Shown: in pieces, positions 8,291 to 45,006 of the stretch
Position numbering within the stretch: position 1 is the stretch's first letter
How the letters are laid out: the number at the start of each line of letters is the position of its first letter
Assembly (NCBI GenBank): GCA_947467125.1
Contig: CANIGN010000002.1
Coordinates: forward strand, 1 to 45,068
DNA from: Bacteriovoracaceae bacterium
GTDB taxonomy: Bacteria; Bdellovibrionota; UBA2428
Reading direction: 5' to 3'
Length of the DNA stretch: 45,068 bases
The notes under the pieces: generated by a model
The model's input: only the letters and a program-made list of their open reading frames with translations
What the model was told of the DNA's origin: nothing
The model's database searches: none
Program-made: the position numbers and the translations under genes

Positions 8291-8324
8291 TTTTGAGAAT
8301 ATCCCAAAAGATTTGCTAGATTGA

Positions 8325-9533: not shown

Positions 9534-9590
9534 GTAAAAAAAAGACGACTTGAAGACCCTTGCTCGTTAAACCATTAATTGAGGGATTCG

Positions 9591-28264: not shown

Positions 28265-29599
28265 TTAGATTATTACGCTACGCTTTTCGGCAAAAAAGAG
28301 CTTACCTGCTATACGAATATAATAAGCTACACCCATCAAGGTTCCCAAAAGAGCCCACATCACGAGTGGTCGATAACCTTGAGCCCACAAGTCTGAAAAC
28401 AACCAATACTTTGCAAAAAAACCAGGCAAAGGGGGAATACCTGCTAAAGAAAAAAGCCCTGCTGCTAAAATAAAACTTTGAAATTTACTTTGCTGACTAT
28501 CCTTTAAATTTAATTCTTCGGGATCTAAGTCTCCATTTGCATCAAGATTTCGGTTTTTCAAAAGACTTGAAAAAGCACTCAAGATCAAAGCGAGCGTCAG
28601 TCCATAAACAAAAAGAAAAAAGATGCCCGATGAAAGAGTCTCTTTTCCAAGCACCATCAATGGAGCAAGGGCTCCAGCATTCACAGTCCCAGAATAAGCT
28701 AGCATGCGTCTGAATGAACGCTGAGTAAAAGCAAGGAGACTTCCCACTAAAATACTGAGGGTTCCGGCAATGACTGCAAAATTCATCAAGTCATTTCTTA
28801 AATAAAATTCCGTTTCAGAAAATGCCAAGGCTGCTGAAACAAAAATACTCAATTTTGTGCCAGCTGCTAAAAAAGCAGCAACGCCCATGGGAGCTCCTTG
28901 ATAAACATCGGGAGCCCAAAAGTGAAAAGGAACAATTGTCATTTTGAAAAAAATTCCAACCAACAAAAAAGCCAAGGCAAGTGTCGAAAGAATATGAGAA
29001 GGAAAATGGCCCTGCAAAGAAGAGTAATCTACTGTTCCTGAGCAAAGATAAACAAGAGCAATGCCCATCAATAAGAGAGCAGAGGCAAAAGCTCCTGTGA
29101 GCATATATTTCAAAGAAGCTTCTAAGCTTCGTTCTCGATTTGTGTCATATCCAGCCAAAATATAAGAAGGGATAGAGAAGAATTCTAAAAACACAAAAAA
29201 GCTAATCCAATTATGAGAAGCAGGGAGCAAACTAAGTCCCATAACGGCTAATATCAAAAGAGCTAACCATTCCGGGCGATTTGCATAGCGCTTTGAAACA
29301 TCAAACAAAACAAAACTTGTAAGAGCAAAGAGAGAAACCAAAGCTCCCACAATTCGAGAAAAATGGGTGATATGTAATCCCAAAACAACTGAATCTGCTT
29401 CTAAAAAAGTAAAAGACCAAGTTGTGATCGCTAAAGAAAAAACAAGTATTCCAATTATTTTAAAAAACTTTGAAGATAATTTTAATCCCGCTCCAATCAC
29501 AGAAAGAGCAAATCCAAAAGATAAAAGCAATAAAGGAAAAAGATCTGATAACTGCTCAGAGGTTATTTCAAAAATTTTACTTTGAAAGAATTCGTTCAT
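28265..29599 (-). CDS. nuoN: NADH-quinone oxidoreductase subunit N (set 1)
   Basis: Antiporter-like with about 13 TM segments. It has the FWAPDVYQGAP motif and is the last gene of the operon. Confidence 0.85.
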   Translation of the reverse strand: MNEFFQSKIFEITSEQLSDLFPLLLLSFGFALSVIGAGLKLSSKFFKIIGILVFSLAITTWSFTFLEADSVVLGLHITHFSRIVGALVSLFALTSFVLFDVSKRYANRPEWLALLILAVMGLSLLPASHNWISFFVFLEFFSIPSYILAGYDTNRERSLEASLKYMLTGAFASALLLMGIALVYLCSGTVDYSSLQGHFPSHILSTLALAFLLVGIFFKMTIVPFHFWAPDVYQGAPMGVAAFLAAGTKLSIFVSAALAFSETEFYLRNDLMNFAVIAGTLSILVGSLLAFTQRSFRRMLAYSGTVNAGALAPLMVLGKETLSSGIFFLFVYGLTLALILSAFSSLLKNRNLDANGDLDPEELNLKDSQQSKFQSFILAAGLFSLAGIPPLPGFFAKYWLFSDLWAQGYRPLVMWALLGTLMGVAYYIRIAGKLFFAEKRSVII

Positions 29600-29608
29600 G
29601 ATTCATCC

Positions 29609-31036
29609 TTACTTCACGGGAATGGATCCATTGATCCAAGCTAATAAAAACTGTGGTGCTAAACCTAAAAGAGCAAGCCCTACTAAAAATGGAAAAATGG
29701 AAACATACTCGTTCCACTTCAAAGAAATAGGATGAGATTCAACAAGGGGAGAGACTTTTCCAAAAACCAAGCCTTTTACAAGTTGAAGCGTATACATGGC
29801 ACCCAAAACAACTCCCATAAGAGGCAACAAAACCCACCACCCTTTTTGCAAGAATGTTCCCGATAAGATCAAAAACTCTCCTACAAAGCCTGGTAACCCT
29901 GGCAAAGCAACGCTCGCCATAGAGGCAAAAACAAAAGTAAAAGCTAAAAAGCGATTTGTTGAGGCAAGACCACCGTACTCGTCTAATTTTCGAGAATGAG
30001 TACGATCGTAAATCATTCCAAAACTTAAGAATAAGAGTCCTGTACTCAGACCGTGGGCAAAATTTTGAAAAAATGCACCAGACTGTGCTGTTGCATTAGT
30101 AGAGATTGCACCTAAAACAACAAAACCCAAATGCGCGACTGAAGAATAAGCAATCATTCGCTTAATGTCTGTCTGGCGAAGAGCTCCGTAACTTCCCAAA
30201 ATAATTCCGATAACAGAAGCAGCAAATAATAAATCAGTAGAGTTCCAATAAAGAGTTGGGAACACCTGAAGAACCCAGCGAAGCATTCCATAAACCCCGA
30301 GCTTCAACAAAATACCAGCGAGCATGACAGAAACACCCGTAGGAGCTTCTGTGTGAGCATCAGGCAACCACGTATGTAAAGGCCACACAGGAACCTTCAC
30401 CAAGAAGGCCAATAAAAAAGCCCAGCCTAACCAGGGAGCAGCAGCACTTAACATCTCTGCGTTTCGTGAAAGCTCAGACCATGCAAGAGATTGAACTTCC
30501 GTTTTTGTAACAATGAAGAAAATCCCCGCAAGAAGAGCCAGCGATCCTGCAAGAGTCATGGAAAAAAACTTCAAAGCTGCATAAACACGATTTTCTGAAC
30601 CCCATATTCCAATAAGAAAGAATAAAGGAATAAGCATAAACTCCCAGAAAATATAAAAAAGAAACGCATCTGCGGCCAAAAGCGATCCAATGGTTCCAAA
30701 ATTTAAAAGCTGAAATAAAATCAAAAAGCTCTGCGAAATTTTGGAATGCCCTAGGAAATAAAAACTCAAAGAAAAACTTAAGAAAATAGTTAAAGCAATA
30801 AGCGAAACGTTTAACGTATCAGCGCCCAAAACCAATGCACTTTTAAAAAGCGGAAAAGTTCCGTAAGTTTCCATTAATCCAAAGGGAGCTCCCGAAGGAG
30901 TCACTTTTATCAATTCAATCAAAAAAAACACCCAAGGAAGATGAAGCAAAAGATTCACCCACTGAGCCCAGTTTTGTTTTCTAAAAGGAACAAGGACAAG
31001 AATACTTAAGAGCGGCCAAAAAAGAATGCTTACCAT
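29609..31036 (-). CDS. nuoM: NADH-quinone oxidoreductase subunit M (set 1)
   Basis: WLPDAHTEAPTGVSVMLAGILLKLG is present. The start is either 31036 (7-nt overlap with nuoL) or 31054. Confidence 0.88.
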   Translation of the reverse strand: MVSILFWPLLSILVLVPFRKQNWAQWVNLLLHLPWVFFLIELIKVTPSGAPFGLMETYGTFPLFKSALVLGADTLNVSLIALTIFLSFSLSFYFLGHSKISQSFLILFQLLNFGTIGSLLAADAFLFYIFWEFMLIPLFFLIGIWGSENRVYAALKFFSMTLAGSLALLAGIFFIVTKTEVQSLAWSELSRNAEMLSAAAPWLGWAFLLAFLVKVPVWPLHTWLPDAHTEAPTGVSVMLAGILLKLGVYGMLRWVLQVFPTLYWNSTDLLFAASVIGIILGSYGALRQTDIKRMIAYSSVAHLGFVVLGAISTNATAQSGAFFQNFAHGLSTGLLFLSFGMIYDRTHSRKLDEYGGLASTNRFLAFTFVFASMASVALPGLPGFVGEFLILSGTFLQKGWWVLLPLMGVVLGAMYTLQLVKGLVFGKVSPLVESHPISLKWNEYVSIFPFLVGLALLGLAPQFLLAWINGSIPVK

Positions 31037-32928
31037 ACGTTTACAACTCCCCACACAACCAAAAGACCCAAGAGCATCAAAAGAGCATAGCTTTGAACTG
31101 AGCCCGTATGAAAGATTGAAGCAAGCTGTCCTGTGATTCTGTAAGAAGCAAAACTTCCATGTAAAGTTCCATTCACTCCATACTCATCAATCCAAAGACT
31201 TAAACAGGTCCCAATTTTTCTAAGGGGCTTTAAGATAAAAGAATCATAAATCTCATCCACGTAAAATTTATTGAAAGATAACTTCCACGCAAAATTTTCT
31301 GAAGACGTAACAGGTCCTTTTTTGTATTTCACGTATGCAAAAAAAGCAGATGCGAGAGAAGCAATTGTCGCGATTCCCATCAAAAGCCACTCTGTTGCAG
31401 CTTCAACTTCGTGGCCCTCAACAGCTTTCGCTCCTGAGCTTTCAACCCAATGAGAAAAATACTGCAAATGCCCCCACATATGAGGAATCTCAAGCCAGCC
31501 CACAAATAGAGAAAGCAGACTTAAAATCATAAGAGGAACAATCATCATTGCTGAACTTTCATGAGCATGTTCAGCCTCGTGACTTCGAGGAGTTGACGAG
31601 AAAGTCAGGAAGTAAGAGCGGAACATATAAAAAGAAGTGAGCATCGCTGCCAATAGCAAGAGCCCATATCCAAGCACACCTCTAGACTCAAAAACTTTTG
31701 TTAAAATAAGATCCTTCGAAAAAAATCCAGACGTAAAGGGAAAGCCCGCAATCGCAACACACCCCACAAGATAGGCCACATGGGACCAAGGCATTTTTTT
31801 TCTAAGACCGCCCATTTTAAAAATATCTTTCTCATCGTGCATTCCATGAATCACAGAACCTGCCGTTAAGAAAAGAAGAGCTTTAAAACACGCATGAGTC
31901 ACGACATGAAAGAATGCCGCCGTTGGAGCTCCCGCTCCCAAAGCTGCAAACATAAAACCTAATTGCGAAACTGTTGAATAAGCTAAAACTTTTTTCAAAT
32001 CTCTTTGAGTAAGAGCCATCAGAGCAGCAAGCAATGCTGTTGAAAGCGCTACCCAAAAAATTACTGAGAGAACTTCTGTTTGTGTTGCAAAAATTGGCCA
32101 CAAACGCACAATCACTAATATTCCAGAGGTAACCATAGTCGCTGCGTGGATCAAAGCAGAAACGGGAGTAGGGCCTGCCATCGCATCAGGCAACCAAATA
32201 TACAAAGGAATTTGCGCAGACTTTCCACAAGCTGCCCAAAAAATAGCAAGGGCAAAAACAGTAAGGACCCACACAGGCAAAGCTGCTGCACGACCTGGAT
32301 CGGCAATCCATTCCATAATTCCCGAAACAGAGGATGTTCCAAAGTAGGCAAAAGCCACAAAAAGAGCGACTAAAAATCCTAAGTCGCCCACTCTGTTAGT
32401 CATAAAAGCTTTGATTCCCGCACGAGCATTTTTATCTTCTTCAAACCAAAATCCGATGAGTAAGTAAGAGCAAACGCCTACTCCTTCCCATCCTAAAAAG
32501 ACTCCAATCAAATCGCTCGAAAGAGCAAGAACCAACATAGAAGTCACAAATAAATTTAAATAAGCAAAAAAACGAGCCTGACTTTTATCATGGCTCATAT
32601 AGGAAGTTGCATAAAGATGAATGAGTGTTCCCACACCTGTGATGATAAGCAACATAACACTCATAAAAGGTGTCAGTTCAAATCCCATCTGAGCTTTTAC
32701 ATGTCCGGCTTGAAACCAAAGATAGCCTGGATCTGCAAGCTTTGAAGCTTCAGGAAATTTTAAAAATTGAAGAATCGACACAACAAAAGCAGCAAAACAA
32801 AATGCTGTTGCAAGCAATCCATTCAGCGTAGACTTCAATCTGAACAATCCATTTAAAAGTGCGCCAGCAGCTGGCAATAAAATAATCCAACTCAAAGGAG
32901 CTTCTACAATGTTTAAAACATCCGTCAT
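31030..32928 (-). CDS. nuoL: NADH-quinone oxidoreductase subunit L (set 1)
   Basis: WLPDAMAGPTPVSALIHAATMV and HDEKDIFKMGGLRKKMP are present. At 632 aa it has the C-terminal extension typical of the lateral helix. Confidence 0.92.
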   Translation of the reverse strand: MTDVLNIVEAPLSWIILLPAAGALLNGLFRLKSTLNGLLATAFCFAAFVVSILQFLKFPEASKLADPGYLWFQAGHVKAQMGFELTPFMSVMLLIITGVGTLIHLYATSYMSHDKSQARFFAYLNLFVTSMLVLALSSDLIGVFLGWEGVGVCSYLLIGFWFEEDKNARAGIKAFMTNRVGDLGFLVALFVAFAYFGTSSVSGIMEWIADPGRAAALPVWVLTVFALAIFWAACGKSAQIPLYIWLPDAMAGPTPVSALIHAATMVTSGILVIVRLWPIFATQTEVLSVIFWVALSTALLAALMALTQRDLKKVLAYSTVSQLGFMFAALGAGAPTAAFFHVVTHACFKALLFLTAGSVIHGMHDEKDIFKMGGLRKKMPWSHVAYLVGCVAIAGFPFTSGFFSKDLILTKVFESRGVLGYGLLLLAAMLTSFYMFRSYFLTFSSTPRSHEAEHAHESSAMMIVPLMILSLLSLFVGWLEIPHMWGHLQYFSHWVESSGAKAVEGHEVEAATEWLLMGIATIASLASAFFAYVKYKKGPVTSSENFAWKLSFNKFYVDEIYDSFILKPLRKIGTCLSLWIDEYGVNGTLHGSFASYRITGQLASIFHTGSVQSYALLMLLGLLVVWGVVNVW

Positions 32929-32954: not shown

Positions 32955-33260
32955 TTAGCCCTTCAAAGAACGAAAATTCTCAAGAGTGAGTGTTCCGTAT
33001 TTTCTATACAGAATCACAAATATAGAAAGAGCAAGAGCTGCTTCTGCGGCCGCAACGAGCGTCACAAAAAGAACAAGTGAAGTTCCCTCTGCGTTTTTAT
33101 AAATCTGCCCTGCTTGAACAAGAACTAAATTCACCCCGTTAAGCATGAGCTCAATTCCCATCAAAGCCACAACAGCACTTCTTTTTGTAAAAAAAGTAAG
33201 CGCTCCAAAACAAAATAAAAATATCGCGACTGAAAAAATTAATTGTCCTGTTGCGATCAT
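32955..33260 (-). CDS. nuoK: NADH-quinone oxidoreductase subunit K (set 1)
   Basis: 101 aa with 3 TM segments. GIELMLNG and AAAEAALALSI are present. Confidence 0.9.
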   Translation of the reverse strand: MIATGQLIFSVAIFLFCFGALTFFTKRSAVVALMGIELMLNGVNLVLVQAGQIYKNAEGTSLVLFVTLVAAAEAALALSIFVILYRKYGTLTLENFRSLKG

Positions 33261-33799
33261 GAATGCTCCTTTTTCCCGAGATGGCCTCTCGCCAAAACAA
33301 TCGCTCCTAAAATGGCACCAAAAACAAGAAGTCCAGCAGCTTGAAAGGGAACTTGATATTGAGAAAGAAAATATTGAGCGTATTGTGTTGCGCTTAGAAT
33401 TGAAGCACTTGAATCCTCAGTTGCTTTTGGAACAAGGTCAATTGTTCTAAACAAAAACAAAGCAAGAAGTCCCGCTACCAATCCTGAAAAAAGAAAATGG
33501 GGTAACCGACCAGGTAGGTTTTTGAGCTTTTGTGGCTTTAAATCTAAAAGCATCACAATAAAAACAAAAAGAACCGCAATCGCTCCGGCGTAAACCAAGA
33601 TCTGTATAGCTCCGACAAAGAAATTTCCAAGTGAGAAGTATAGGGCCGCAGTTGAAAAAAGAGTTCCCATAAGAGCAACCGCACATGAAATCGGATTGCT
33701 GCTTACAAAAACAATCAACGCAAAAAATATTGCAAAAAAACTCGCAACCCACATGAAAACTGTAGGAGCTCCCGCTATTAAATCAGTTGCTTGATTCAT
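33257..33799 (-). CDS. nuoJ: NADH-quinone oxidoreductase subunit J (set 1)
   Basis: It lies between nuoH and nuoK. TM-rich, with a segment AIQILVYAGAIAVLFVFIVML. I chose the start at 33799 (ATGA overlap with the nuoH stop); the longest ORF runs 72 nt into nuoH. Confidence 0.85.
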   Translation of the reverse strand: MNQATDLIAGAPTVFMWVASFFAIFFALIVFVSSNPISCAVALMGTLFSTAALYFSLGNFFVGAIQILVYAGAIAVLFVFIVMLLDLKPQKLKNLPGRLPHFLFSGLVAGLLALFLFRTIDLVPKATEDSSASILSATQYAQYFLSQYQVPFQAAGLLVFGAILGAIVLARGHLGKKEHS

Positions 33800-34869
33800 A
33801 CAGACCTCAAATAACTCACAATCATCGTGATAAAAATATTTAGAACTCCAAGAGGAAGTAAAACCTTCCATCCTAAATGCATCAATTGGTCATAACGAAA
33901 GCGTGGAAGAGTCCATCGAATCCAAACATAAAACCACATGAAAAATAAAACCTTAACCGCAAATGAAACGACTTGAAGGGCACATGTTGCTGCAGATGCC
34001 ATCGTTAGCGTCATCTCTTTTGCTAAGAAAAAATTCCTGATTGTTTCTTCTGAGAGAAAAGGGACGTTATAACCTCCTAAGAAGAGAGTCGTTAAAAAAG
34101 CAGACGCGACAAACATCGCTGCATATTCACCCATAAAAAAGAGAGCAAACTTCATTCCGGAATATTCTGTGTGATAACCCGCAACAAGTTCTGATTCTCC
34201 TTCAGGAAGATCGAAAGGCAATCGATTGGTTTCTGCAAAAGCGCATACCCAAAGAATAAAAAAGCTCAAAGGCTGCATAAAAATTCCCCAAGCAGGCAAA
34301 GAAGACCCTGCCTCTTGAAGCTTTACAATTTCACGAAGATCAAGCGTTCCATAAGTGATGACAAGAGCGACGATACAAATTCCAATCGCAATTTCGTAAC
34401 TAATCATCTGTGAGCTTGCACGAAGAGCGCCCATCAAAGAAAACTTATTGTTTGATGCCCATCCCGCAGTGAGAACGGAGAAAACGTGCATAGAATTAAT
34501 TGCAAGCAAAAATAAAAGTCCCACACTCATATTTGCCACTTGAACGGGAAACTCAATTCCTTCCAAGTTGATAGATCCCGCCAAAGGAACCACCGTAAAG
34601 GAAATCAATGGAGGAATCACAGCAAGTGCAGGTGCGAGTAAGAACAAAACTTTATGCGCCTTTGCAGGAACGTTTTCTTCTTTGAAAACAAACTTAACAG
34701 CATCCGCCATGGGCTGCATTAAGCCCCAAGGTCCTACGCGATTGGGACCGCTTCGACGTTGCATCCATGCAGAACCACGTCGTTCAACAATAACCATCAA
34801 TGGAACGCCTGTTAGAACAGCCGCTCCTAAGGCAATGGCAACTATGGCTGACCACAGTTCAGCACTCAT
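33796..34869 (-). CDS. nuoH: NADH-quinone oxidoreductase subunit H (set 1)
   Basis: ERRGSAWMQRRSGPNRVGPWGLMQPMADAVKF and ETNRLPFDLPEGESELVAGYHTEYSG are present. Confidence 0.93.
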   Translation of the reverse strand: MSAELWSAIVAIALGAAVLTGVPLMVIVERRGSAWMQRRSGPNRVGPWGLMQPMADAVKFVFKEENVPAKAHKVLFLLAPALAVIPPLISFTVVPLAGSINLEGIEFPVQVANMSVGLLFLLAINSMHVFSVLTAGWASNNKFSLMGALRASSQMISYEIAIGICIVALVITYGTLDLREIVKLQEAGSSLPAWGIFMQPLSFFILWVCAFAETNRLPFDLPEGESELVAGYHTEYSGMKFALFFMGEYAAMFVASAFLTTLFLGGYNVPFLSEETIRNFFLAKEMTLTMASAATCALQVVSFAVKVLFFMWFYVWIRWTLPRFRYDQLMHLGWKVLLPLGVLNIFITMIVSYLRSV

Positions 34870-36233
34870 GACTGCTGCCTCGCTCGAATAGCATCCAATA
34901 CAGATCCCAACTGACCAGAAACTTTTGGAAGCTCTGGAGTAAATTCACTTTCAGGTATCAAAAGTTTTTCAAATTCTTCTGGAAATTTTTTCAACATGCT
35001 CGTCACCGGCATTGCGCAGGCATCTGACAAAACGCAAATGGTTTTACCTGCCATGTTATCGCAAGCACTTTGAACATTTTTCAAATCGCTCTTGGTTCCT
35101 TGGCCACTACAAACACGGCGGAGCATTTTGTATGTCCACTTTGTTCCTTCGCGACAAGGCACACACTGACCGCAACTTTCATGAGCATAAAAGCGCGCTG
35201 TTCGCATACAGATTTCTGGAATACTTCTGCTATCATCAACAACGATAATTGCACAACTTCCCATCATGGTTCCCTTCGCAGCAAGGCTGTCGAAGTCCAT
35301 GGGAACATCAAATTCTTCAGCTTTCAAAAGGGGCGAAGAAGACCCACCCGGAAAACACGCTTTAAATTTTCTACCAGGCAATGGGCCACCACAAATTTCA
35401 TTCAACATTGTTGAAAGCTTTGTGCCGACAGGAACTTCAAAAAATCCTGGTTTTTGTACGTCTCCAGAAACTCCCCATACGGTTGTTCCTGCTCCACGAT
35501 TTGTTCCGTTCCCCATTTTGATAAACCACTCAGCGCCGTTCAATAAAATTCCTGGAACGTGCGCAAGAGTTGCAACGTTATTTACAATTGTAGGTCCACC
35601 AAAGGCTCCGCTAATCGCAGGGAAGGGAGGCTTCAAACGAGGCTGACCACGGTCTCCTTCGAGAGATTCGATCAATCCTGTTTCTTCACCACAAATATAA
35701 GCCCCTGCACCGGGATGCACTGTTAAATCAAAAGCCTTTCCTGATCCAAAAATGTTTTGGCCAAGATAATTTTTTGCATAAGCTTCGTTAATAGCATCTT
35801 CTAAGCGCTTAATGGCCAAACGCAATTCACCGCGCACGTAGATGTAGCCCGTCTTAGATCCAATCGCGACTGCAGCGGCAATCATTCCCTCAATCAAACG
35901 ATGAGGACAATGCTCCATAATCTGACGATCTTTAAAAGTTCCGGGCTCACCTTCGTCTGCATTACAAACAAGATAAACAGGCTTTGTTGGATTTTTAGGA
36001 ATAAAACTCCATTTCATTCCCGTAGGGAAGCCCGCTCCACCTAAGCCACGTAAACCTGACTCTTTCACTGTTTTGATAATGTCATCGGCAGGCATTGAAA
36101 CGGCTTTTTTTGCAGCTTCATAACCTTTATAATTTTTTTCGTAATGCTGAATTGTCCATGACTTATCCTCACCGTATCCAGCAATCAAAACTCTTTTTTC
36201 AATTGGGTGGAGGGGTTGAATCTTTTGGCTCAC
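34866..36233 (-). CDS. nuoF: NADH-quinone oxidoreductase subunit F (FMN/NADH-binding, N3 cluster)
   Basis: GLRGLGGAGFPTGMKW, CNADEGEPGTFKDR and ESCGQCVPCREG (4Fe-4S) are present. The GTG start overlaps the nuoE stop (GTGA). Confidence 0.95.
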   Translation of the reverse strand: MSQKIQPLHPIEKRVLIAGYGEDKSWTIQHYEKNYKGYEAAKKAVSMPADDIIKTVKESGLRGLGGAGFPTGMKWSFIPKNPTKPVYLVCNADEGEPGTFKDRQIMEHCPHRLIEGMIAAAVAIGSKTGYIYVRGELRLAIKRLEDAINEAYAKNYLGQNIFGSGKAFDLTVHPGAGAYICGEETGLIESLEGDRGQPRLKPPFPAISGAFGGPTIVNNVATLAHVPGILLNGAEWFIKMGNGTNRGAGTTVWGVSGDVQKPGFFEVPVGTKLSTMLNEICGGPLPGRKFKACFPGGSSSPLLKAEEFDVPMDFDSLAAKGTMMGSCAIIVVDDSRSIPEICMRTARFYAHESCGQCVPCREGTKWTYKMLRRVCSGQGTKSDLKNVQSACDNMAGKTICVLSDACAMPVTSMLKKFPEEFEKLLIPESEFTPELPKVSGQLGSVLDAIRARQQS

Positions 36234-36775
36234 GCGACACTCCCTTCAGAAATACGTTTTTCATAATCAGGATAAGCATTTTTATCTTTTAATAAGTCAT
36301 CAATAATTCGATCGACTTTTTCGATCGTGAGTTCTTCGTGATAATCCCAACCATTCACCTGAAGAACAGGCGCTGTTCCGCAAGAAGCCAAACACTCCAC
36401 GCGTTCAAGACTGAATTTACCATCTGGAGTTATTTCGTTTTCTTTAATATTGAGCCGCTTTTTAATGTGCTCAATCACGCCATCACTCCCACGCAAATAG
36501 CAGCTGATGTTATGACAAACTTGCAAAACATACTGCCCTTTTTGATTGAGGCGAAACATTGTGTAGAAACTTGCGACTTCGCGAACTCGTGCGGGACTTA
36601 GATCCATTCGCTTAGCAACGTATTCAATTGAATCAGGAGTGAGCCATTTGTTTTCATCTTGTACAAGATGCAAAATGGGCAGCAACACAGCATCTTTTGT
36701 CGGATAACGAGTCAGTAACCACTGAAATCTTTTTTCAACTTCAGGAGAGAATTCATATTTCTTTTCGGAAGCCAT
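36230..36775 (-). CDS. nuoE: NADH-quinone oxidoreductase subunit E (2Fe-2S N1a)
   Basis: The Cys pattern is VCHNISC ... CLASCGTAP. Length is 181 aa. Confidence 0.92.
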   Translation of the reverse strand: MASEKKYEFSPEVEKRFQWLLTRYPTKDAVLLPILHLVQDENKWLTPDSIEYVAKRMDLSPARVREVASFYTMFRLNQKGQYVLQVCHNISCYLRGSDGVIEHIKKRLNIKENEITPDGKFSLERVECLASCGTAPVLQVNGWDYHEELTIEKVDRIIDDLLKDKNAYPDYEKRISEGSVA

Positions 36776-37308
36776 TAGGAATTTACTCCTTGTCCACGAA
36801 CAACAGTTGTTCCAAAGGGATCAAACATTCCCTCGTCGACAACTTTCTTTTCAAATTCTTGTCGATAATCCACTACGAAATCTTTTCTCAAAGGATGTCC
36901 CTTAAACGAATGAGGCAAAAGAATACGTCTCATGTCCGCATGGCCTTCAAAAACAATTCCATACATGTCGTAAACTTCTCGCTCGAGCCAATCAGCACCT
37001 TTCCACATATCAGTGACTGTAGAAATTTTAGGATCCAAATCAGCAACGGGAACCACAACGGAACAACGCTTTTTACTTTGCAAAGAAATTAATTCATAAA
37101 CCACATGAAAGCGTGGAGAAGCAGGAGCTTCATCATAAGCTGTTAAATCAGCCATGTGAACATAGCCTCGTGATTGCAAATCCTTCAAAAGTTCTTTGAA
37201 GTTTTCAACACTTGCTTTGAGCTCGGGCTCTGACGGAGCAGACTCTCGAATTGTGAGATTATATTTACTTTTTAATTCTTCAAAAAAACTTTCAAATTGC
37301 GTTGCCAT
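36775..37308 (-). CDS. nuoC: NADH-quinone oxidoreductase subunit C (30 kDa subunit)
   Basis: WKGADWLEREVYDMYGIVFEGHADMRRILLPHSFKGHPLRKDF is present. The start at 37308 shares 1 nt with the nuoA stop (TAATG); the longest ORF extends 45 nt into nuoA. Confidence 0.9.
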   Translation of the reverse strand: MATQFESFFEELKSKYNLTIRESAPSEPELKASVENFKELLKDLQSRGYVHMADLTAYDEAPASPRFHVVYELISLQSKKRCSVVVPVADLDPKISTVTDMWKGADWLEREVYDMYGIVFEGHADMRRILLPHSFKGHPLRKDFVVDYRQEFEKKVVDEGMFDPFGTTVVRGQGVNS

Positions 37309-37700
37309 TATGAAGGCTCCCATTCCACAGCACCGGCACGATATTCGTACCAAATACTTAAAACAAAAAAGACGAGAAAAAATAAAGTTGTGAGCATGCC
37401 CACAATTCCCACAGCTTTGAGCTGAGGCCAGGCAAGTGCAACCGGAAGCAAGAAAGCTGCTTCAAGGTCGAACAATAAAAACAAAATCGCAACGAGGTAA
37501 TATTTTACACTTAAACGATCACGCGCTTCGCCCGTGGGAGTAATTCCACATTCGTAAGACATAATTTTGGGACCAAATAATCTTCTGGGTCCTAAAAATC
37601 GACCTACAAAAAAAGCTCCACCCACAACAACAGAGGCGAAGGCAAACATGACAAAAATTCCTAAGAGGTTTGTATCAGGCGTGTTCATCAAAAAAGGCAA
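37308..37700 (-). CDS. nuoA: NADH-quinone oxidoreductase subunit A
   Basis: 3 TM segments. SYECGITP and LLFDLEAAFLLP are present. The start is either TTG 37700 or ATG 37688. Confidence 0.88.
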   Translation of the reverse strand: MPFLMNTPDTNLLGIFVMFAFASVVVGGAFFVGRFLGPRRLFGPKIMSYECGITPTGEARDRLSVKYYLVAILFLLFDLEAAFLLPVALAWPQLKAVGIVGMLTTLFFLVFFVLSIWYEYRAGAVEWEPS

Positions 37701-37776
37701 AAGCCCATCTTATTTCATAGCGCCAAGGTCATAGAGTGGCAATTATCAAATAGGAAAGCTGACAAATAACAAAGGC

Positions 37777-39315
37777 TTAGCGAGCAAAGTCTAGCGAAGT
37801 CATTGCCCATGACATTAAGGGTTCCCAATAAAGACCAAAAACTAAATTAGGAACAGCCAAAACAAACAACATCACAAGAATAAACTTAGGAATTTGCCCC
37901 TGAATATTGAGTGTTTCTTCAGAAACCTTCTCGAGGAACATCGCTTTTAAAATTTTAGCGTAATAAAAGAGAGAAATGACGGAATTTACCCCTGCAAGCA
38001 AAGCAAGCCCGTACATTTTTTGGCCCAAGATTGCGATAAAGAGGTAAAGCTTTCCGATAAAACCAACAAAAGGAGGTAATCCAACTAAAGAAAATAAGAA
38101 GATAGCCATCAGAACCGCAAGAAGAGGCGCTTTTTTAGCAAGTCCCTTGAAATCCTTTAATGAATCTCCACCCATTCGATCTTCAACGAGTGAAGCAACC
38201 CAAAAAGCACCAAGGTTCATCGTGCAATAAACAACGATGTAAAACATGATCGCAGAAAGACCTTCTCTGTTTTGAGAAGTCAGTCCAAGCAACATATATC
38301 CTGCATGAGCGATACTTGAATAAGCCAATATACGCTTAACCGAAGTCTGTCCTAGGGCCGCAAGATTTCCCATGAACATCGTAAAGACTGAAGAGATTGC
38401 AAAAAATTTAGCCCAAGAAACAAGTCCCCCTGCTAAATAAGCTGGCTGAGTTGCATTCTTTGTGGCCAACAACACAAGATCTTGATCCACAACGGGGAGC
38501 GAAAGTCCCACTACAAAAAATCGAATCAAAAGAGCAAAACCTGCAGCCTTTGGAGCAACTGAGAAAAGTGCAGCAACTGGAGTAGGGGACCCTTCATATA
38601 CGTCTGGTGTCCACATGTGCATAGGAGCCGCACTGATTTTGTAGCCAAAACCTGCGAATGAAAAAATAACTCCTACCCAAAAAAGATAAGGAATAGCATC
38701 AGCGGGAACAGAATGAACAAAGTTTCTCATCCCCGAAATTGTCAGTTCACCTGAAACAGCATACATAAGACTCATTCCGAAGATCATGATTCCTGTAGCA
38801 AGGGCTCCATATACAACATACTTCATCGAAGCTTCGACCGAAGATTGTCTTTCGCGATGAAAGCCCGCCAACGCGTAACTCAAAACAGAAACCATTTCGA
38901 TTCCTAGATAAGCCATTAAGAAATGGTTTGAAGAAGACATGAAAAGCAACCCGCAACCAAAAGCAAGAAGCAAACTCATATACTCAGCTTTTCTATCTGC
39001 AAGAAGTTCTTTTGAATAATGTCCCATCACGACTGCAAAAAGAATAATGAAGGGAATTATAAATCCAAAAAAAGAACTGAAGGCATCATGATAAACTAAG
39101 CCACTAAAATACTGTGTCGAAAGAAGTCCTAAATTAGGAATATTCAAAGCCGCTGCTGTCACAAGAATAAGACTTGTGAGTATTGTCAAAACACAAGAAG
39201 AACGGATCCAAAGTCCAGCCATTAAAAGGACTAAACTCCCTATGGCCATGGCAAGATTGGGGCCTAAATACTTCAAGCTATCCATTAAATTTGAAACAAC
39301 GGCTACAGAATTCAT
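37777..39315 (-). CDS. nuoN: NADH-quinone oxidoreductase subunit N (set 2 paralog)
   Basis: 512 aa, antiporter-like. MWTPDVYEGSPTPVAALFS is present. It is the last gene of the upstream set. Confidence 0.85.
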   Translation of the reverse strand: MNSVAVVSNLMDSLKYLGPNLAMAIGSLVLLMAGLWIRSSCVLTILTSLILVTAAALNIPNLGLLSTQYFSGLVYHDAFSSFFGFIIPFIILFAVVMGHYSKELLADRKAEYMSLLLAFGCGLLFMSSSNHFLMAYLGIEMVSVLSYALAGFHRERQSSVEASMKYVVYGALATGIMIFGMSLMYAVSGELTISGMRNFVHSVPADAIPYLFWVGVIFSFAGFGYKISAAPMHMWTPDVYEGSPTPVAALFSVAPKAAGFALLIRFFVVGLSLPVVDQDLVLLATKNATQPAYLAGGLVSWAKFFAISSVFTMFMGNLAALGQTSVKRILAYSSIAHAGYMLLGLTSQNREGLSAIMFYIVVYCTMNLGAFWVASLVEDRMGGDSLKDFKGLAKKAPLLAVLMAIFLFSLVGLPPFVGFIGKLYLFIAILGQKMYGLALLAGVNSVISLFYYAKILKAMFLEKVSEETLNIQGQIPKFILVMLFVLAVPNLVFGLYWEPLMSWAMTSLDFAR

Positions 39316-40868
39316 TAGCGGAGAGTCTCCGTAATCATGTTTGATGAAACTTTAAAAATGTTAATCAAAGGCTGAGGAAATAATCCAATCCACAAGCAAA
39401 GAACTGCGAGAGGAATCAACACAACCCACTCGTTCCAACGAATAGGAGGAATTTCACCTGCAGGATGATAATGTCCGCTCTCGTCTTTATGAAGAGCCAC
39501 ATAAGGGCCCAAAAACACTCTTTGAACCATCCATAGCAAGTAAGCTGCTGTGAGAAGAATTCCAAGAGCAGCAACAGAAGTGAGAGTTTTATAAACTGGG
39601 AAGGCTCCCAAGAAAACCATCGCTTCAGAGATAAAGCCGTTCAAACCAGGAAGACCTAAGCTTGAAAAAACAGCGACCATCCATGCAGCGGTAATGATCG
39701 GAGATTTTTGAGCGATTCCCCCAAAACCAAGCTTTCCATCCGTCGTAACAATCGCACGGTGATGGAGACGATCATAAAGAATCCCTACCAACATAAACAT
39801 CATGGCTGCTGAAAGTCCGTGGTTAAACATTTGAAGAATAGCACCTTGCATACCCGCTGCTGTGAAAACAGCCATTCCCAAAAGACAATAACCCATGTGA
39901 CTGACTGAGGAGTAAGCAACAAGTTTTTTCAAATCTTTTTGCGCCATCGCACAGAGAGCTCCGTAAACGATGTTAATCACTCCCATTACTGCAAGAGTTG
40001 TTGCAAAATACTGAGTCGCTTGTGGCAAGAGCCAGTAGTTAATTCTCAAAAATCCGTAAATGCCCATTTTCAAAAGAACGCCTGCAAGAATAACAGACAC
40101 CGCTGTGGGAGCTTGAACGTGAGCCCAAGGCAACCACGTGTGAAAAGGAACAATCGGAACTTTCACTGCAAAACCCATGAACAACAAAACCCAAACTGCT
40201 TTATCAAAAGGAAGAGTCATTCCAAAAAAGTTCAGCGTATATTGTGACCAGTTAATCTTAGAAAGTTGTGCGAGATCAAAAGTCGCAGGACTTAACCCAT
40301 TAGGTCCAGTGCTGTAGAAATAAAGAGCCAAAAGACCCACAAGCATCAACACAGATCCAAAAAGAGTATACAAAAAGAATTTAATCGCAGCATATTCTTT
40401 GCGCTCGCCACCCCAAATACCCACAAGGAAGTACATAGGCAAAAGCATGACTTCCCAGAAAACGTAAAAGAGGAAGAAATCAAGAGCACAAAAAACACCC
40501 AACATTCCCACATGGAGAAGAAGGAACATGGAAAAATATCCTTTGACTTGTTTTTTGATATTCCAACTTGCAAAGATGCACAAAAAACTCAAAAGAGTTG
40601 CAAGCAAGACCATCAAGAAACTCATTCCGTCTATTCCCATATGGAATTCAACGTTAAGAGAAGGAATCCAAAGAGCTTTTTCAACAAACTGAAAACCTCC
40701 CACTGAATAATTAAAGAGAGTTGTGAGCTTAATCGCTAACAAGAGAGGAACAAGCGTTACACCAACCGAAATCCATTTCACAATGTCGTCTTTCCCTTTG
40801 GGGACAAACAAGATCGCAAGAATTCCTAAGAGCGGAAAAAACGTTATCCAACTGAGAACACAATTCAT
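39315..40868 (-). CDS. nuoM: NADH-quinone oxidoreductase subunit M (set 2 paralog)
   Basis: 517 aa. WLPWAHVQAPTAVSVILAGVLLKMG is present. Confidence 0.88.
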   Translation of the reverse strand: MNCVLSWITFFPLLGILAILFVPKGKDDIVKWISVGVTLVPLLLAIKLTTLFNYSVGGFQFVEKALWIPSLNVEFHMGIDGMSFLMVLLATLLSFLCIFASWNIKKQVKGYFSMFLLLHVGMLGVFCALDFFLFYVFWEVMLLPMYFLVGIWGGERKEYAAIKFFLYTLFGSVLMLVGLLALYFYSTGPNGLSPATFDLAQLSKINWSQYTLNFFGMTLPFDKAVWVLLFMGFAVKVPIVPFHTWLPWAHVQAPTAVSVILAGVLLKMGIYGFLRINYWLLPQATQYFATTLAVMGVINIVYGALCAMAQKDLKKLVAYSSVSHMGYCLLGMAVFTAAGMQGAILQMFNHGLSAAMMFMLVGILYDRLHHRAIVTTDGKLGFGGIAQKSPIITAAWMVAVFSSLGLPGLNGFISEAMVFLGAFPVYKTLTSVAALGILLTAAYLLWMVQRVFLGPYVALHKDESGHYHPAGEIPPIRWNEWVVLIPLAVLCLWIGLFPQPLINIFKVSSNMITETLR

Positions 40869-40869
40869 A

Positions 40870-42987
40870 TTAAAAACCTCTCCAAATAAGAACGACGACT
40901 AAAGCCGCAACCGCGACTAATAAATACCTCTGAACTCGACCATTTTGTAAGGTCCGCAAAGTAGATCCTAAAGCTGAAGGCATTGCTCCTCCTACTCCAT
41001 CTACCAAAAGACCATCGATCAAAACGTCATCTATTAAAATTCCCGCAACATCCTTGGTTGCTTGAGTTACGTTTTTCACTCCATCCACTGCACCCTGATC
41101 GATAACTTTGTCATCGAAGATTGCACAAAAAGAAGAGAAAGGCATAAAAACTTTTTGAATCAAAATCTTGATGTAGAACCAATCGAAGAAATAAAGATTA
41201 TCAATTGCCTTGTGAACAAAGCTTGGCCAAAGAGCTGCTAACTTATCAGCAGAAATTTTCTTTGCTCCAAACACAAGATAACTAAAAGTAATTCCAATTG
41301 AAGCGACAACCAAAGAGAGGATCATGCCTGGCATGTGAGCATGATGTAGGTGCTCATGCCACGCCTCTCCGTGACCTGCTGAAAAAGACGCATTTGTTAC
41401 AAGAGTTTCAAACCAATTGTTTGCGCCTTTGAGAATAAAATCTCCTTCGCCGAGCAATCCTCCGGTTAAACTTCCGGTAAACAACACTGACAAAGAGAGT
41501 CCCGCTAAAACAACAAGAGGCACAAACATATTAAAAGAAACTTCGTGAGCTTCTTCATAATGATGATGATCATGCGGCTCTCCAAAAAATGTTTTGAAGA
41601 TCAAGCGGAACATATAAAAAGCAGTTAATCCTGCCGTTAAAAATCCCGCCAAAGGAATAAAGAAATGTTGTGAGTGATCAAGAATTCCAAATGCATATGC
41701 TGCTACAAGAATCTTATCTTTAGAGACAAAGCCACTAAACATTGGGACTCCAGAAATCGCAAGTGTAGCGATGAACATACACGCAAAAGTGATAGGAATT
41801 TTTTTGCGCAATCCACCCATATGACGAATATCTTGCTCGTGGTGCATGGCATAGATCACCGCTCCAGAACTCATGAAAAGACACGCTTTAAAAAGAGCGT
41901 GTGTAATCAGGTGCATGAAAGAAGCTTGATAAGCCCCCAAACCTACAGCCATGACCATATATCCCAGCTGAGAAAGAGTTGAATAAGCGAGAATTTTTTT
42001 AATGTCGTTTTGCTTAATGGCAAGAATCGCAGCAAAGAGAGCAGTGAACGCACCTACATAAGCAACAATTGTCAGCACTCCTCCCACTTCAAGAAGAGGG
42101 AACATTCTCAAAATCAAATAAACGCCCGCTGCAACCATTGTCGCTGCGTGAATAAGAGCAGACACAGGAGTGGGACCTTCCATTGCATCAGGCAACCAAA
42201 CTTGCAAAGGAAACTGAGCGGATTTTCCAACTGTTCCGCAAAAAATCAAAAGACCAATAACCGCTGCTGCATGAAAGCCACCAATCGTAAAATTGAACTG
42301 TCCAGATTGAATAGCCGCATAAATATCGTCAAAACGAAAAGATCCAAGAGCCTGTCCGTTTGCCAAAGGCAAAGTGAAAAGCATGAGCATTCCCGTAAAG
42401 AGACCCATATCTCCCACTCGAGTGGTCATAAATGCTTTGAGGCTCGCATTTGCAGCAGAAATTTTGTGTCGATAAAACCCAATGAGGAGATAAGAGCAAA
42501 GACCCATCAACTCCCATGACATAAAGAGAGTAAACAGATTGTCTGAAATAATAAGACCGAGCATCGCTGAAGTGAAAAGCGATAAATAAGCAAAGAAACT
42601 TGCGTAACGATATCCATCTTCAGGCTCTCCGTGATGATTGCGCATGTAGCCCGTTGAAAATAAATGAATCAACGTCGAGCAAAGAGTGACCATGAACAAC
42701 ATGATCGATGACATGTTATCAATACGAACACCAATTTCTAATTTGAAAGGCGTCTTGAGAGAAGCAAGGTCGAACCATGTAAAGTGCCACGTTTCTACCC
42801 ACGCAGGATCAAAATGATTGAACATGGATAAAAATATTCTTGAAGCCGCGACAAAAGATAAAAAGATCGCACCAAGGCTCACCCAATCTCCCATTCGAGG
42901 AAGTCTTTTGCCTACAAAAACTTGCACGAAATAAGCAAGTAGCGGAAACAAAGGAATCAAAAGAGCTAAAGAAATATTGGTGGTCAT
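40870..42987 (-). CDS. nuoL: NADH-quinone oxidoreductase subunit L (set 2 paralog, long form)
   Basis: 705 aa. WLPDAMEGPTPVSALIHAATMV and HHEQDIRHMGGLRKKIP are present, plus a long C-terminal region. Confidence 0.92.
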   Translation of the reverse strand: MTTNISLALLIPLFPLLAYFVQVFVGKRLPRMGDWVSLGAIFLSFVAASRIFLSMFNHFDPAWVETWHFTWFDLASLKTPFKLEIGVRIDNMSSIMLFMVTLCSTLIHLFSTGYMRNHHGEPEDGYRYASFFAYLSLFTSAMLGLIISDNLFTLFMSWELMGLCSYLLIGFYRHKISAANASLKAFMTTRVGDMGLFTGMLMLFTLPLANGQALGSFRFDDIYAAIQSGQFNFTIGGFHAAAVIGLLIFCGTVGKSAQFPLQVWLPDAMEGPTPVSALIHAATMVAAGVYLILRMFPLLEVGGVLTIVAYVGAFTALFAAILAIKQNDIKKILAYSTLSQLGYMVMAVGLGAYQASFMHLITHALFKACLFMSSGAVIYAMHHEQDIRHMGGLRKKIPITFACMFIATLAISGVPMFSGFVSKDKILVAAYAFGILDHSQHFFIPLAGFLTAGLTAFYMFRLIFKTFFGEPHDHHHYEEAHEVSFNMFVPLVVLAGLSLSVLFTGSLTGGLLGEGDFILKGANNWFETLVTNASFSAGHGEAWHEHLHHAHMPGMILSLVVASIGITFSYLVFGAKKISADKLAALWPSFVHKAIDNLYFFDWFYIKILIQKVFMPFSSFCAIFDDKVIDQGAVDGVKNVTQATKDVAGILIDDVLIDGLLVDGVGGAMPSALGSTLRTLQNGRVQRYLLVAVAALVVVLIWRGF

Positions 42988-42989
42988 TT

Positions 42990-43322
42990 TTATCCTCTAA
43001 GCCTCGCCATTCCATCTGGATCGATCGATCTTTTAACTCCGAAAACTCGCAAGACAATCGCCAAAGCAACAGCTGCTTCAATTGCGGCCATCACAATAAT
43101 AAAGAGAGAAAAGATGGCTCCGTCTTGAGTGGGAGAAGCGGCCGCTTTTGTTTGTAAAAGTTTAACCGCTACAAAATTTAAAGCTGCTGCATTTAAAATA
43201 AGTTCGACTCCCATGAAAATACCAATCGTATTTTTACGAGAAAGAGCTGCCACAATTCCAAAAACAAACATAATGGCACTCACAACAAGATAAAAAGATA
43301 AGTTATTTGCTAAACCGCTCAT
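42990..43322 (-). CDS. nuoK: NADH-quinone oxidoreductase subunit K (set 2 paralog)
   Basis: 110 aa with 3 TM segments. GVELILNA and AAIEAAVALAI are present. Confidence 0.88.
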   Translation of the reverse strand: MSGLANNLSFYLVVSAIMFVFGIVAALSRKNTIGIFMGVELILNAAALNFVAVKLLQTKAAASPTQDGAIFSLFIIVMAAIEAAVALAIVLRVFGVKRSIDPDGMARLRG

Positions 43323-43849
43323 TTGCTTGATCCCTCATCTTTATAATGAATTTCTTTATAATCAGGTCGGGCAACAATCACCGCACCCACAAGCCCAACC
43401 AAAAGGAAAAGAGCAATGTATTCAAAAGGAAGAGCGTATAATGTTGTCAAAGCAACTCCTACAGATTCTGAAATGGGAACCCTTACTGGATCCGCAACGA
43501 GCGAAAATTGAGTTTTTGAAATCAATTTAAAAAGAACCCAAAAAATTGCAGTTGAAAAAACTATGGGCGCTAAATATTTACGAGCCTGATCTAAGAATCG
43601 CGCTCTATAAATATTTTCAGACATCATGATCGCAAAAAGAATGACAACGATAATTCCGCCCACGTAAATAATAAGCTGAACAGCTGCAAGAAAATCAGCT
43701 CCAAGAACAACATAAAAACCCGCAACTGAAATCAAAGTGAACGTAAGAGAAATGGCTGCGTATAAAATATTCGGATGAAACGCGACGATTGAAGAAGTAA
43801 GAACAGTGCTGATTCCAATGAGGAGTGTAAAGATATCAATTAATTTCAT
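43319..43849 (-). CDS. nuoJ: NADH-quinone oxidoreductase subunit J (set 2 paralog)
   Basis: 176 aa. It lies between nuoH2 and nuoK2 and contains AVQLIIYVGGIIVVILFAIMM. Confidence 0.85.
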   Translation of the reverse strand: MKLIDIFTLLIGISTVLTSSIVAFHPNILYAAISLTFTLISVAGFYVVLGADFLAAVQLIIYVGGIIVVILFAIMMSENIYRARFLDQARKYLAPIVFSTAIFWVLFKLISKTQFSLVADPVRVPISESVGVALTTLYALPFEYIALFLLVGLVGAVIVARPDYKEIHYKDEGSSK

Positions 43850-43851
43850 AA

Positions 43852-45006
43852 TTAATGCGCGCCTCCTGCAAGACCCAAAACTTCAATCATTCCGCGACCG
43901 TGAAAGACGAGCATCCAAATGGCAGCGCCCATCAAATTAAACAATCCAATAGGGATTAAATATTTCCAGCAAAGAGACATAAGTTGATCGACGCGAAGTC
44001 GGGGCAAAGTCCAGCGCAACCACATCACAATAAAGACAAGGACTGCAACTTTTGCCAAAAAGACTCCGATCATGAAAAGACTCTGAACAACAACATCCAG
44101 GTTTCCACCAAAAAGCTTCCAGCCTAAATGAATGTCTGCCAAATTAAGAAAAGGCAAATTCCAGCCACCAAAGAAAAGCGCTGTTGCGATACAACAGAAC
44201 ATAATGACATCCGAAAATTCAGCAAGAGCATAAAGACCAAAGCGCATTCCGCTAAACTCAGTGTTAAATCCTGAAACAAGTTCCGACTCTGCTTCCGCCA
44301 AGTCAAAAGGAGTTCGGTTACATTCAGCAAGAGACGCGATGAAATATATAAAGAAATTTATAAAGACAAAAGGATTATGGAGAATAAACCAAAAATGCCC
44401 GCTTTCTCCATTAGGCCAAGACTGAAGCTCAACCATTTTTCCAATGTTCATAGTTCCCGAAATCATCACAACTGTTAAAACAGCAATTCCAAGTGGAATT
44501 TCGTAGGAAACGATTTGAGCCGCGGCTCGCACTCCACCCAAGAGCGACCATTTATTTTCAGAAGACCAAGCGCCGAGCAAAATTCCAAGAGAAACAAGCG
44601 AGCTTACAGCCATCACATAAAAAACGCCGATATCTAAATCAGCGCCCATGACATGTTTTGCAAAAGGAATAACAGCAAAAGCACCTAAGCTGCCTGCCAT
44701 CACCAAAGTTGGAGCAATATTGTAAACAAAAAGATCCGCATTTTTATTCGCGATATCTTCCTTCAAAAACATTTTGATACCGTCTGCAAAAAACTGCAAA
44801 AGGCCAATGGGCCCTACGCGATTGGGTCCAATACGCTCTTGAAAATCGGCACTGATTTTACGCTCAAGATAGGTACAAACTCCTCCGACGGGCATCGCAA
44901 ACAAAAGGATTACAATCACCGCAGATAAAATTGAAAAAACGCTTGAAGGCGCAATGTATCCCGTTAAAACGGTAAATCCGTCGCTTAATAAATCGGCTAA
45001 AGTCAT
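43852..45006 (-). CDS. nuoH: NADH-quinone oxidoreductase subunit H (set 2 paralog)
   Basis: YLERKISADFQERIGPNRVGPIGLLQFFADGIKMF and ECNRTPFDLAEAESELVSGFNTEFSG are present. Confidence 0.93.
   Translation of the reverse strand: MTLADLLSDGFTVLTGYIAPSSVFSILSAVIVILLFAMPVGGVCTYLERKISADFQERIGPNRVGPIGLLQFFADGIKMFLKEDIANKNADLFVYNIAPTLVMAGSLGAFAVIPFAKHVMGADLDIGVFYVMAVSSLVSLGILLGAWSSENKWSLLGGVRAAAQIVSYEIPLGIAVLTVVMISGTMNIGKMVELQSWPNGESGHFWFILHNPFVFINFFIYFIASLAECNRTPFDLAEAESELVSGFNTEFSGMRFGLYALAEFSDVIMFCCIATALFFGGWNLPFLNLADIHLGWKLFGGNLDVVVQSLFMIGVFLAKVAVLVFIVMWLRWTLPRLRVDQLMSLCWKYLIPIGLFNLMGAAIWMLVFHGRGMIEVLGLAGGAH

Follow-up and report, generated by a model that had tools for sequence, protein, structure and literature searches.

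In complex I (NDH-1, the NADH:quinone oxidoreductase) electrons pass from flavin mononucleotide (FMN) and the iron-sulfur (Fe-S) cluster N3 in NuoF to N1b, N4 and N5 in NuoG, further to N6a and N6b in NuoI and then to N2 in NuoB. The quinone site is formed by NuoD, NuoB and NuoH. In the structures of the complex NuoC packs against NuoD, and NuoE and NuoF dock on NuoG. All core genes usually, though not obligatorily, reside in one co-linear operon, nuoA-N. Here we examined the nuo genes in a 45,068-nucleotide stretch of DNA from a Bacteriovoracaceae bacterium (contig CANIGN010000002.1, positions 1 to 45,068; 'the window'). One of its two nuo gene runs has the order nuoA-C-E-F-H-J-K-L-M-N and skips nuoB, nuoD, nuoG and nuoI.

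Split nuo genes have been described in the Bdellovibrionota. According to the passages on nuo genes in a 2026 paper on the Peredibacter starrii genome, all Bdellovibrionota possess a nuoAHJKLMN cluster, whose chromosomal site is the same throughout; a second nuo cluster is present in a 'split arrangement' in Bdellovibrio-like organisms except Peredibacter, which possesses a complete nuoA-N (PMC13147790). The same passages compare the 'identities of 14 genes' with Bdellovibrio and Bacteriovorax, from which it follows, as far as this text goes, that all 14 exist in Bacteriovorax. In an older survey the Bdellovibrio nuo operon is labelled 'split' (PMC4758237). Neither the A-C-E-F-H-J order nor the identity of the displaced subunits is stated in these passages of the two papers, and in the literature searched for skipped-gene nuo orders no description of the A-C-E-F-H-J layout was found. 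Thus, the split and the phylum-wide nuoAHJKLMN cluster were partly noted before; the exact gene order is not given in that text.

The nuo genes of the window all lie on the minus strand, to which all window coordinates below refer. There are sixteen in two runs. Cluster 2 extends from 37700 to 28265 and contains the ten genes nuoA-C-E-F-H-J-K-L-M-N. Cluster 1, which encodes a membrane arm only, is located directly upstream. In cluster 2 the nuoA stop and the nuoC start overlap by 1 nucleotide (TAATG, 37310..37306, read directly on the minus strand), and 1 nucleotide is common to the nuoC stop and the nuoE start (TAATG, 36777..36773). nuoE and nuoF overlap in GTGA (36233..36230), nuoF and nuoH in ATGA (34869..34866), and nuoH and nuoJ again in ATGA (33799..33796). 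These are the five coupled junctions reported in the initial annotation, and every one was exact. A sixth, ATGA at 33260..33257, couples nuoJ and nuoK. The overlapping junctions therefore leave no room for nuoB, nuoD, nuoG and nuoI in the operon. The product sizes are typical of stand-alone subunits (NuoA 113-130, NuoC 177, NuoE 181, NuoF 455 and NuoH 357 amino acids); therefore, no fusion conceals an absent subunit. Compared with the canonical nuoA-N operon of Escherichia coli or with Nqo1-14 of Thermus thermophilus, the ten subunits are orthologous and are kept in their relative order, with ligands and pumping residues retained, whereas B, D, G and I are lacking and a second membrane-arm cluster is present in tandem.

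The search for the four genes covered about 65 kb (the window and flanks of about 10 kb) of a genome of at least 1.4 Mb. A six-frame regular-expression search of the 45-kb window yielded no CxxCxxCxxxC(P) motif; the lack of a NuoI-type double CxxCxxCxxxCP pattern, as originally claimed, was thus confirmed. With NuoB, NuoD, NuoG and NuoI queries from a canonical operon (L016) no tblastn match was obtained in the window, nor within about 10 kb of the cluster in the related loci L008, L010, L011, L015, L018, L019, L021 and L145-L148. The rest of the window consists of cell-division and housekeeping genes (ftsA/Z, ddl, RmuC and similar). Accordingly, the quinone (Q) module and the Fe-S wire, i.e. 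NuoB, NuoD, NuoI and NuoG, were not found in the window and its flanks. Junctions, motif search and tblastn agree with the initial annotation that the four genes are absent from the operon, and its statement that the operon alone cannot encode an electron path from NuoF to quinone stands. Its suggestion that they may be located upstream of nuoH2, the first gene of cluster 1 in the window, failed. Contigs with an identical NuoH2 add a single gene there, encoding a NuoA2 of 169 amino acids, which is followed by the divergently oriented pfkB and mfd. Leftward of the window the product of the first open reading frame (ORF) was without a record. Neither viral contigs, searched with a NuoD alignment, nor plasmids, searched with NuoC, contained a Bdellovibrionota sequence.

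The genes of the operon are genuine and intact. Pfam assigned every cluster 2 gene, all far over the curated cut-offs. nuoA (37308..37700; Oxidored_q4, E 3.5e-26) retains D79 and E81 (E. coli numbering). Its start is uncertain: ORF logic gives TTG 37700 (130 amino acids), while ATG 37649 (113 amino acids) is the likely one; starts set by gene callers in close relatives result in 113-133 amino acids. The stand-alone nuoC (36775..37308; Complex1_30kDa, E 1.2e-39; 177 amino acids) encodes a protein that matches solved Nqo5/NDUFS3 chains, with T. thermophilus Nqo5 as the best PDB match. At its C-terminus it carries an extension of about 25 residues (DYRQEF...FDPFG, 36775-36860) that is specific to the clade, includes a nearly invariant FDPF and is without a counterpart in canonical NuoC. 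Judged by sequence, this extension appears to be the sole non-canonical trait among the encoded proteins. In NuoE (36230..36775; 2Fe-2S_thioredx, E 3.7e-52; 181 amino acids) the N1a ligands C92, C97, C133 and C137 (E. coli numbering) are kept. NuoF (34866..36233, GTG start; Complex1_51K, SLBB and NADH_4Fe-4S; 455 amino acids) possesses the FMN/NADH loops GGAGFPTG and GAGAYICGEE and the N3 ligands C351, C354, C357 and C398 (E. coli numbering).

The membrane subunits are equally well preserved. They are encoded by nuoH (33796..34869; NADHdh, E 5e-115; 357 amino acids), with ten conserved charged residues intact; nuoJ (33257..33799; Oxidored_q3; 180 amino acids from ATG 33799); nuoK (32955..33260; Oxidored_q2), with E36 and E72; nuoL (31030..32928; Proton_antipo_N/M/C; 632 amino acids), with its key residues and a lateral helix of canonical length; nuoM (29609..31054; Proton_antipo_M; 481 amino acids), with E144, K234, K265 and E407; and nuoN, the last gene of the cluster (28265..29599; Proton_antipo_M; 444 amino acids), with E133, K217, K247 and K395. 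If nuoM starts at GTG 31054, its first 25 nucleotides coincide with the last 25 of nuoL (31030-31054); the real start may lie farther downstream. Upon alignment to E. coli all 38 checked charged positions of NuoA, H, J, K, L, M and N were found to be kept in both clusters. The ratio of non-synonymous to synonymous substitution rates (dN/dS) versus the relative L008 was 0.013-0.095 for all sixteen genes and 0.015-0.06 for those of cluster 1. All sixteen genes are under strong purifying selection.

Do relatives possess the same gene order? This check had been proposed in the initial annotation, and the answer is yes. The layout mfd, A2-H2-J2-K2-L2-M2-N2, A-C-E-F-H-J-K-L-M-N, large tetratricopeptide repeat (TPR) protein is common to seven relatives. 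Their NuoC proteins are 92-93% (L008 and L010), 59% (L011), 51% (L015 and L018), 48% (L019) and 44% (L021) identical to that of the window. In L015 the locus is on a contig of 2.73 Mb, and L021 is a GC-rich relative. In none of them could B, D, G or I be accommodated. Across the Bacteriovoracaceae-type clade the layout covers a range of NuoC identities of 44-98%. Twenty-three independent contigs, which come from different samples and were built with different assemblers, encode an identical NuoH2, and five of these contigs exceed 1 Mb; the matches in genome collections were metagenome-assembled genomes from lakes. The split layout is therefore lineage-specific and evolutionarily stable and is not an assembly error. 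The initial annotation considered that the finding would lose interest if the layout were known for the lineage and the B/D/G/I locus well annotated. The first part applies in so far as the split is lineage-specific and the literature mentions split nuo genes; a B/D/G/I locus was not found in the window and flanks covered.

The same order is present in a second, deeper Bdellovibrionota lineage (L145-L148). There, A-C-E-F-H-J-K-L-M-N with overlapping junctions adjoins mfd-gpsA, and cluster 1 is absent. Therefore, the skipping layout is older than the clade of the window and independent of the tandem cluster. The NuoC of this lineage is 46% identical to the window NuoC; its cluster, P0121, has a member named Bdellovibrionota at NCBI. 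In L145 (5037-12451) and L146 (2491-11799) a single A-C-E-F-H-J-K-L-M-N cluster is located by mfd-gpsA, without A2HJKLMN. H, J and L of the deeper lineage are nearer to cluster 2 of the window; M and N score higher against M2 and N2 of cluster 1. Compared with the phylum-wide nuoAHJKLMN site in the text of PMC13147790, the deeper lineage has the A-C-E-F-H-J-K-L-M-N cluster there instead.

By sequence comparison the NuoC of the clade forms a well-separated lineage. In a word-index search about 106 NuoC clusters reached 160 bits or more, whereas the one after these scored about 120 bits. When 1.84 billion representatives were searched exhaustively, five of 8105 NuoC representatives were at E<=1e-30, P0121 being the fifth; no NuoCD fusion close to the clade was among the NuoC representatives. 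In a metagenome scan with a NuoC alignment L149 and L150 were the only clade members among the matches listed. L020, the nearest NuoC outgroup in the word index, was considered as Halobacteriovorax because of its GC content and was rejected when a NuoG search led to Aminicenantes. L143 was discarded as a seed for B/D/G/I of the clade; it is KSB1/Deferribacteres. Both L020 (9201-16580) and L143 (9181-17252) have nuoA-B-C(D)-E-F-G-H-I and then genes unrelated to nuo, so that nuoJ-N are encoded elsewhere, a different kind of split.

The explanation which we favor, with a probability of about 0.7, is a canonical complex I in a split layout: NuoB, NuoD, NuoG and NuoI would be encoded at one or more other loci of the genome. 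The region then probably contains the main set of complex I genes in a Bacteriovoracaceae-type bacterium from freshwater. Cluster 2 would supply NuoC, the NuoE/NuoF pair that oxidises NADH and all of a membrane arm, and cluster 1 a second, divergent membrane arm. The trans-encoded subunits would join these products in a normal modular assembly to yield a canonical NADH:quinone oxidoreductase. The short overlaps at A/C, C/E, E/F, F/H, H/J and J/K may serve translational coupling of the genes that were kept together. Because NuoC, NuoE, NuoF and NuoH are kept under strong constraint, B, D, G and I are needed from somewhere. An extension of this explanation is more tentative. The trans-encoded Fe-S and quinone-site subunits might, together with NuoC, serve both membrane arms, which would result in two complex I isoforms with one shared core. 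In both NuoH and NuoH2 the residues facing the Q module are conserved, although neither cluster encodes such a module; therefore, a shared B/C/D/I core would be reasonable, if less likely than not.

Several points weigh against the split-layout explanation. Neither for the source genome nor for any clade member were nuoB, nuoD, nuoG or nuoI found in the window and the flanks of about 10 kb covered. That these genes exist is argued from biochemical necessity and from an indirect sentence of one paper. That two membrane arms might share one peripheral arm is the weaker part. Further, the proteome table of B. bacteriovorus HD100 lists Bd3086 as NuoB, Bd3085 as NuoC/D, Bd3084 as NuoE, Bd3083 as NuoF and Bd3081 as NuoG. 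This cluster differs from that of the window in that B-CD-E-F-G are in canonical order, and the layout cannot be extrapolated from HD100.

A precedent for trans-encoded Fe-S subunits is available in unrelated soil metagenomes, where operons of the order A-C-D-E-F-G-H-J-K-L-M leave no room for B or I. The soil and peat orders were taken from 80 metagenome loci listed for NuoC. In at least about 20 of these, from GC-rich soil and peat samples, nuoA is directly followed by nuoC. L168, L171, L177, L189, L196 and L206 have the order A-C-D-E-F-G-H-J-K-L-M; in L168, e.g., the end of nuoA (9844) is close to the start of nuoC (about 9900), as is the end of nuoH (16855) to the start of nuoJ (16897). The same abutting of A/C and H/J was seen in L154-L158, L164, L167, L172, L178, L180, L186, L197 and L217. 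nuoB and nuoI of the operons which lack them must be encoded elsewhere. As in the window, nuoA is directly followed by nuoC and nuoH by nuoJ; unlike the window, these operons keep nuoD and nuoG and come from unrelated organisms. In a neighbour-joining tree of NuoF the B/I-less soil operons were not placed as sister to the clade of the window, and the tree left the relationship undecided. Other arrangements were observed as well. In L185 (1-6000) nuoB, a short nuoG and nuoI are grouped ahead of C-D-E-F, L199 has A-B-C-D-E-F-H-J-K-L-M-N without G and I, and L210 has A-C-D-H-J-K-L-M-N. As several soil and peat loci are without Fe-S genes, the omission of Fe-S subunits from nuo operons is recurrent.

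Cluster 1 (37777..45006, assigned by Pfam) has the order nuoA2-H2-J2-K2-L2-M2-N2, with nuoA2 just past the end of the window. It comprises nuoH2 (43852-45006), nuoJ2 (43319-43849), nuoK2 (42990-43322), nuoL2 (40870-42987; 705 amino acids), nuoM2 (39315-40868) and nuoN2 (37777-39315), the last being N-like by BLAST. The membrane subunits of the two clusters are old paralogs with identities of 25-42%: 37.5% (H/H2), 42% (L/L2), 35% (M/M2), 30% (N/N2) and 26% (J/J2). Cluster 1 adjoins mfd in the window, L015 and L018. It thus has the same A-H-J-K-L-M-N content as the Bdellovibrionota cluster in the text of PMC13147790 and a conserved site by mfd. The spacer between nuoN2 and nuoA (37701..37776, 76 nucleotides) was without a promoter-like or terminator-like site in simple scans. 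In L011 the spacer (7242-9445) contains a redoxin gene, an M48 peptidase gene and two YbjQ genes. Since three of the four are on the opposite strand, the clusters are separate transcription units, at least in L011. The L010 spacer (8553-9660) contains an ORF of about 280 amino acids on the opposite strand. Insertions at this place are thus tolerated in relatives. At the other end of cluster 2 nuoN is followed by the TPR protein of 977 amino acids (25271-28204), which is syntenic in L015, L018 and L019 (988-1001 amino acids).

Membrane-arm operons of this kind are known from other bacteria. The marine actinomycetes Salinispora, Streptomyces and Kocuria carry extra partial nuoAHJKLMN operons (PMC6676996). 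As in the window, the membrane-arm-only operon exists beside another nuo cluster. In the actinomycetes, however, a complete nuoA-N supplies the peripheral arm, whereas in the window the neighbouring cluster is itself incomplete. The 11-subunit NDH-1 (nuoA-B-C-D-H-I-J-K-L-M-N, no NuoE/F/G) is different again: cluster 1 is without B, C, D and I, and cluster 2 has E and F.

A distinct feature of cluster 1 resides in NuoL2. Its anchor-to-anchor distance is 82 residues compared with 52 in NuoL of the window and 48 in E. coli NuoL. Throughout the NuoL2 family (680-719 amino acids, at least 120 clusters) the anchors are 80-87 residues apart versus 48-52 in canonical proteins, and the extra length of about 28-30 residues is in the C-terminal lateral helix. 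An AlphaFold2 model of NuoL2 has a lateral helix of 92 residues, with a predicted local distance difference test score (pLDDT) of only 47-66 in the extension; that of the NuoL model has 44 residues, also with a low pLDDT. An insertion of 26 residues at the same place of NuoL is described in 2M-type complex I and in 'Ca. Manganitrophaceae', where the relevant text links it to a fourth pump (Chadwick et al. 2018, cited in PMC9040806). To judge from the sequence anchors, the insertion in NuoL2 would coincide in position and nearly in length with that of the 2M-type variants of Nitrospira and 'Ca. Manganitrophaceae'. Yet cluster 1 is without a second nuoM; it has one each of L2, M2 and N2, i.e. 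three antiporter-like genes only, and a fourth pump gene was not seen in it. Cluster 1 also is without nuoB/C/D/I, and in the text of PMC9040806 2M clusters are not reported without these. Two different membrane arms might draw on one trans-encoded B/D/G/I core, with the lateral helix of one arm made to span four pumps; this is less likely than not, but more likely than an absence of the four genes from the whole genome.

These features of cluster 1 bear on the strongest alternative. B, D, G and I from elsewhere might serve the arm of cluster 2 only, and cluster 1 might be an add-on or an alternative pumping module or work with a different partner. The lack of any peripheral-arm gene in cluster 1, the long lateral helix of NuoL2, found in sequence and model alike, its counterpart in the 2M-type enzymes and the extra operons in marine actinomycetes are all in line with this. 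Yet no checked residue is lost from NuoH2 and NuoA2, the subunits that in complex I make up the NuoB/D interface and the quinone tunnel, which argues for a bound Q module. In addition, there are three antiporter-like genes and not four, and the pLDDT in the helix extension is low. We consider this alternative as unlikely.

Far less probable is a genome-wide absence of B, D, G and I, in which case NuoC, NuoE and NuoF with the membrane arm or arms would constitute a non-canonical enzyme that uses non-homologous carriers or another acceptor. It would accommodate the failure to detect the four genes in the window, in its flanks of about 10 kb and in those of ten relatives, and the well-separated NuoC of the clade with its own conserved C-terminal extension. 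On the other hand, NuoC, NuoE, NuoF and NuoH are canonical at every residue checked, and in established complex I structures NuoC and NuoE/F have their contacts on NuoD and NuoG, respectively. Furthermore, the comparison of 14 nuo genes with Bacteriovorax in the text of PMC13147790 is at odds with such an absence, and the covered 65 kb are a small part of the genome. A non-canonical assembly of NuoEF with a membrane arm, as considered in the initial annotation, seems unlikely because every residue looks canonical. If the four genes were indeed absent genome-wide, this would be a new kind of NADH-linked ion pump with a path without the canonical Fe-S wire and quinone pocket. Finally, an artefact, be it the chimeric join which the initial annotation had named as a possible refutation, or a decaying operon with recent deletions, has a negligible probability: misassembly and pseudogenes are ruled out by the identical protein and order on the 23 independent contigs and by the dN/dS ratios, relatives with a NuoC identity as low as 44% have the same order, and reading frames are intact with coupled start and stop codons.

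If B, D, G and I lie elsewhere in the genome, as the split-layout explanation has it, the region would be a clear natural example of a complex I whose modules are encoded separately. The set for the wire and the quinone site would be split from the NADH module and the pump, and one set may serve two divergent arms. In the latter case Bacteriovorax-type predators would be a tractable system to study how, in the course of assembly, a peripheral arm is paired with its membrane arm. The layout also calls for caution in annotation: if pathway completeness is judged by a single operon, complex I will be scored as broken in these organisms, and wrongly so. Fe-S subunits are omitted from nuo operons of unrelated soil bacteria, too. 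The phenomenon may thus be of wider occurrence and not peculiar to a single lineage.

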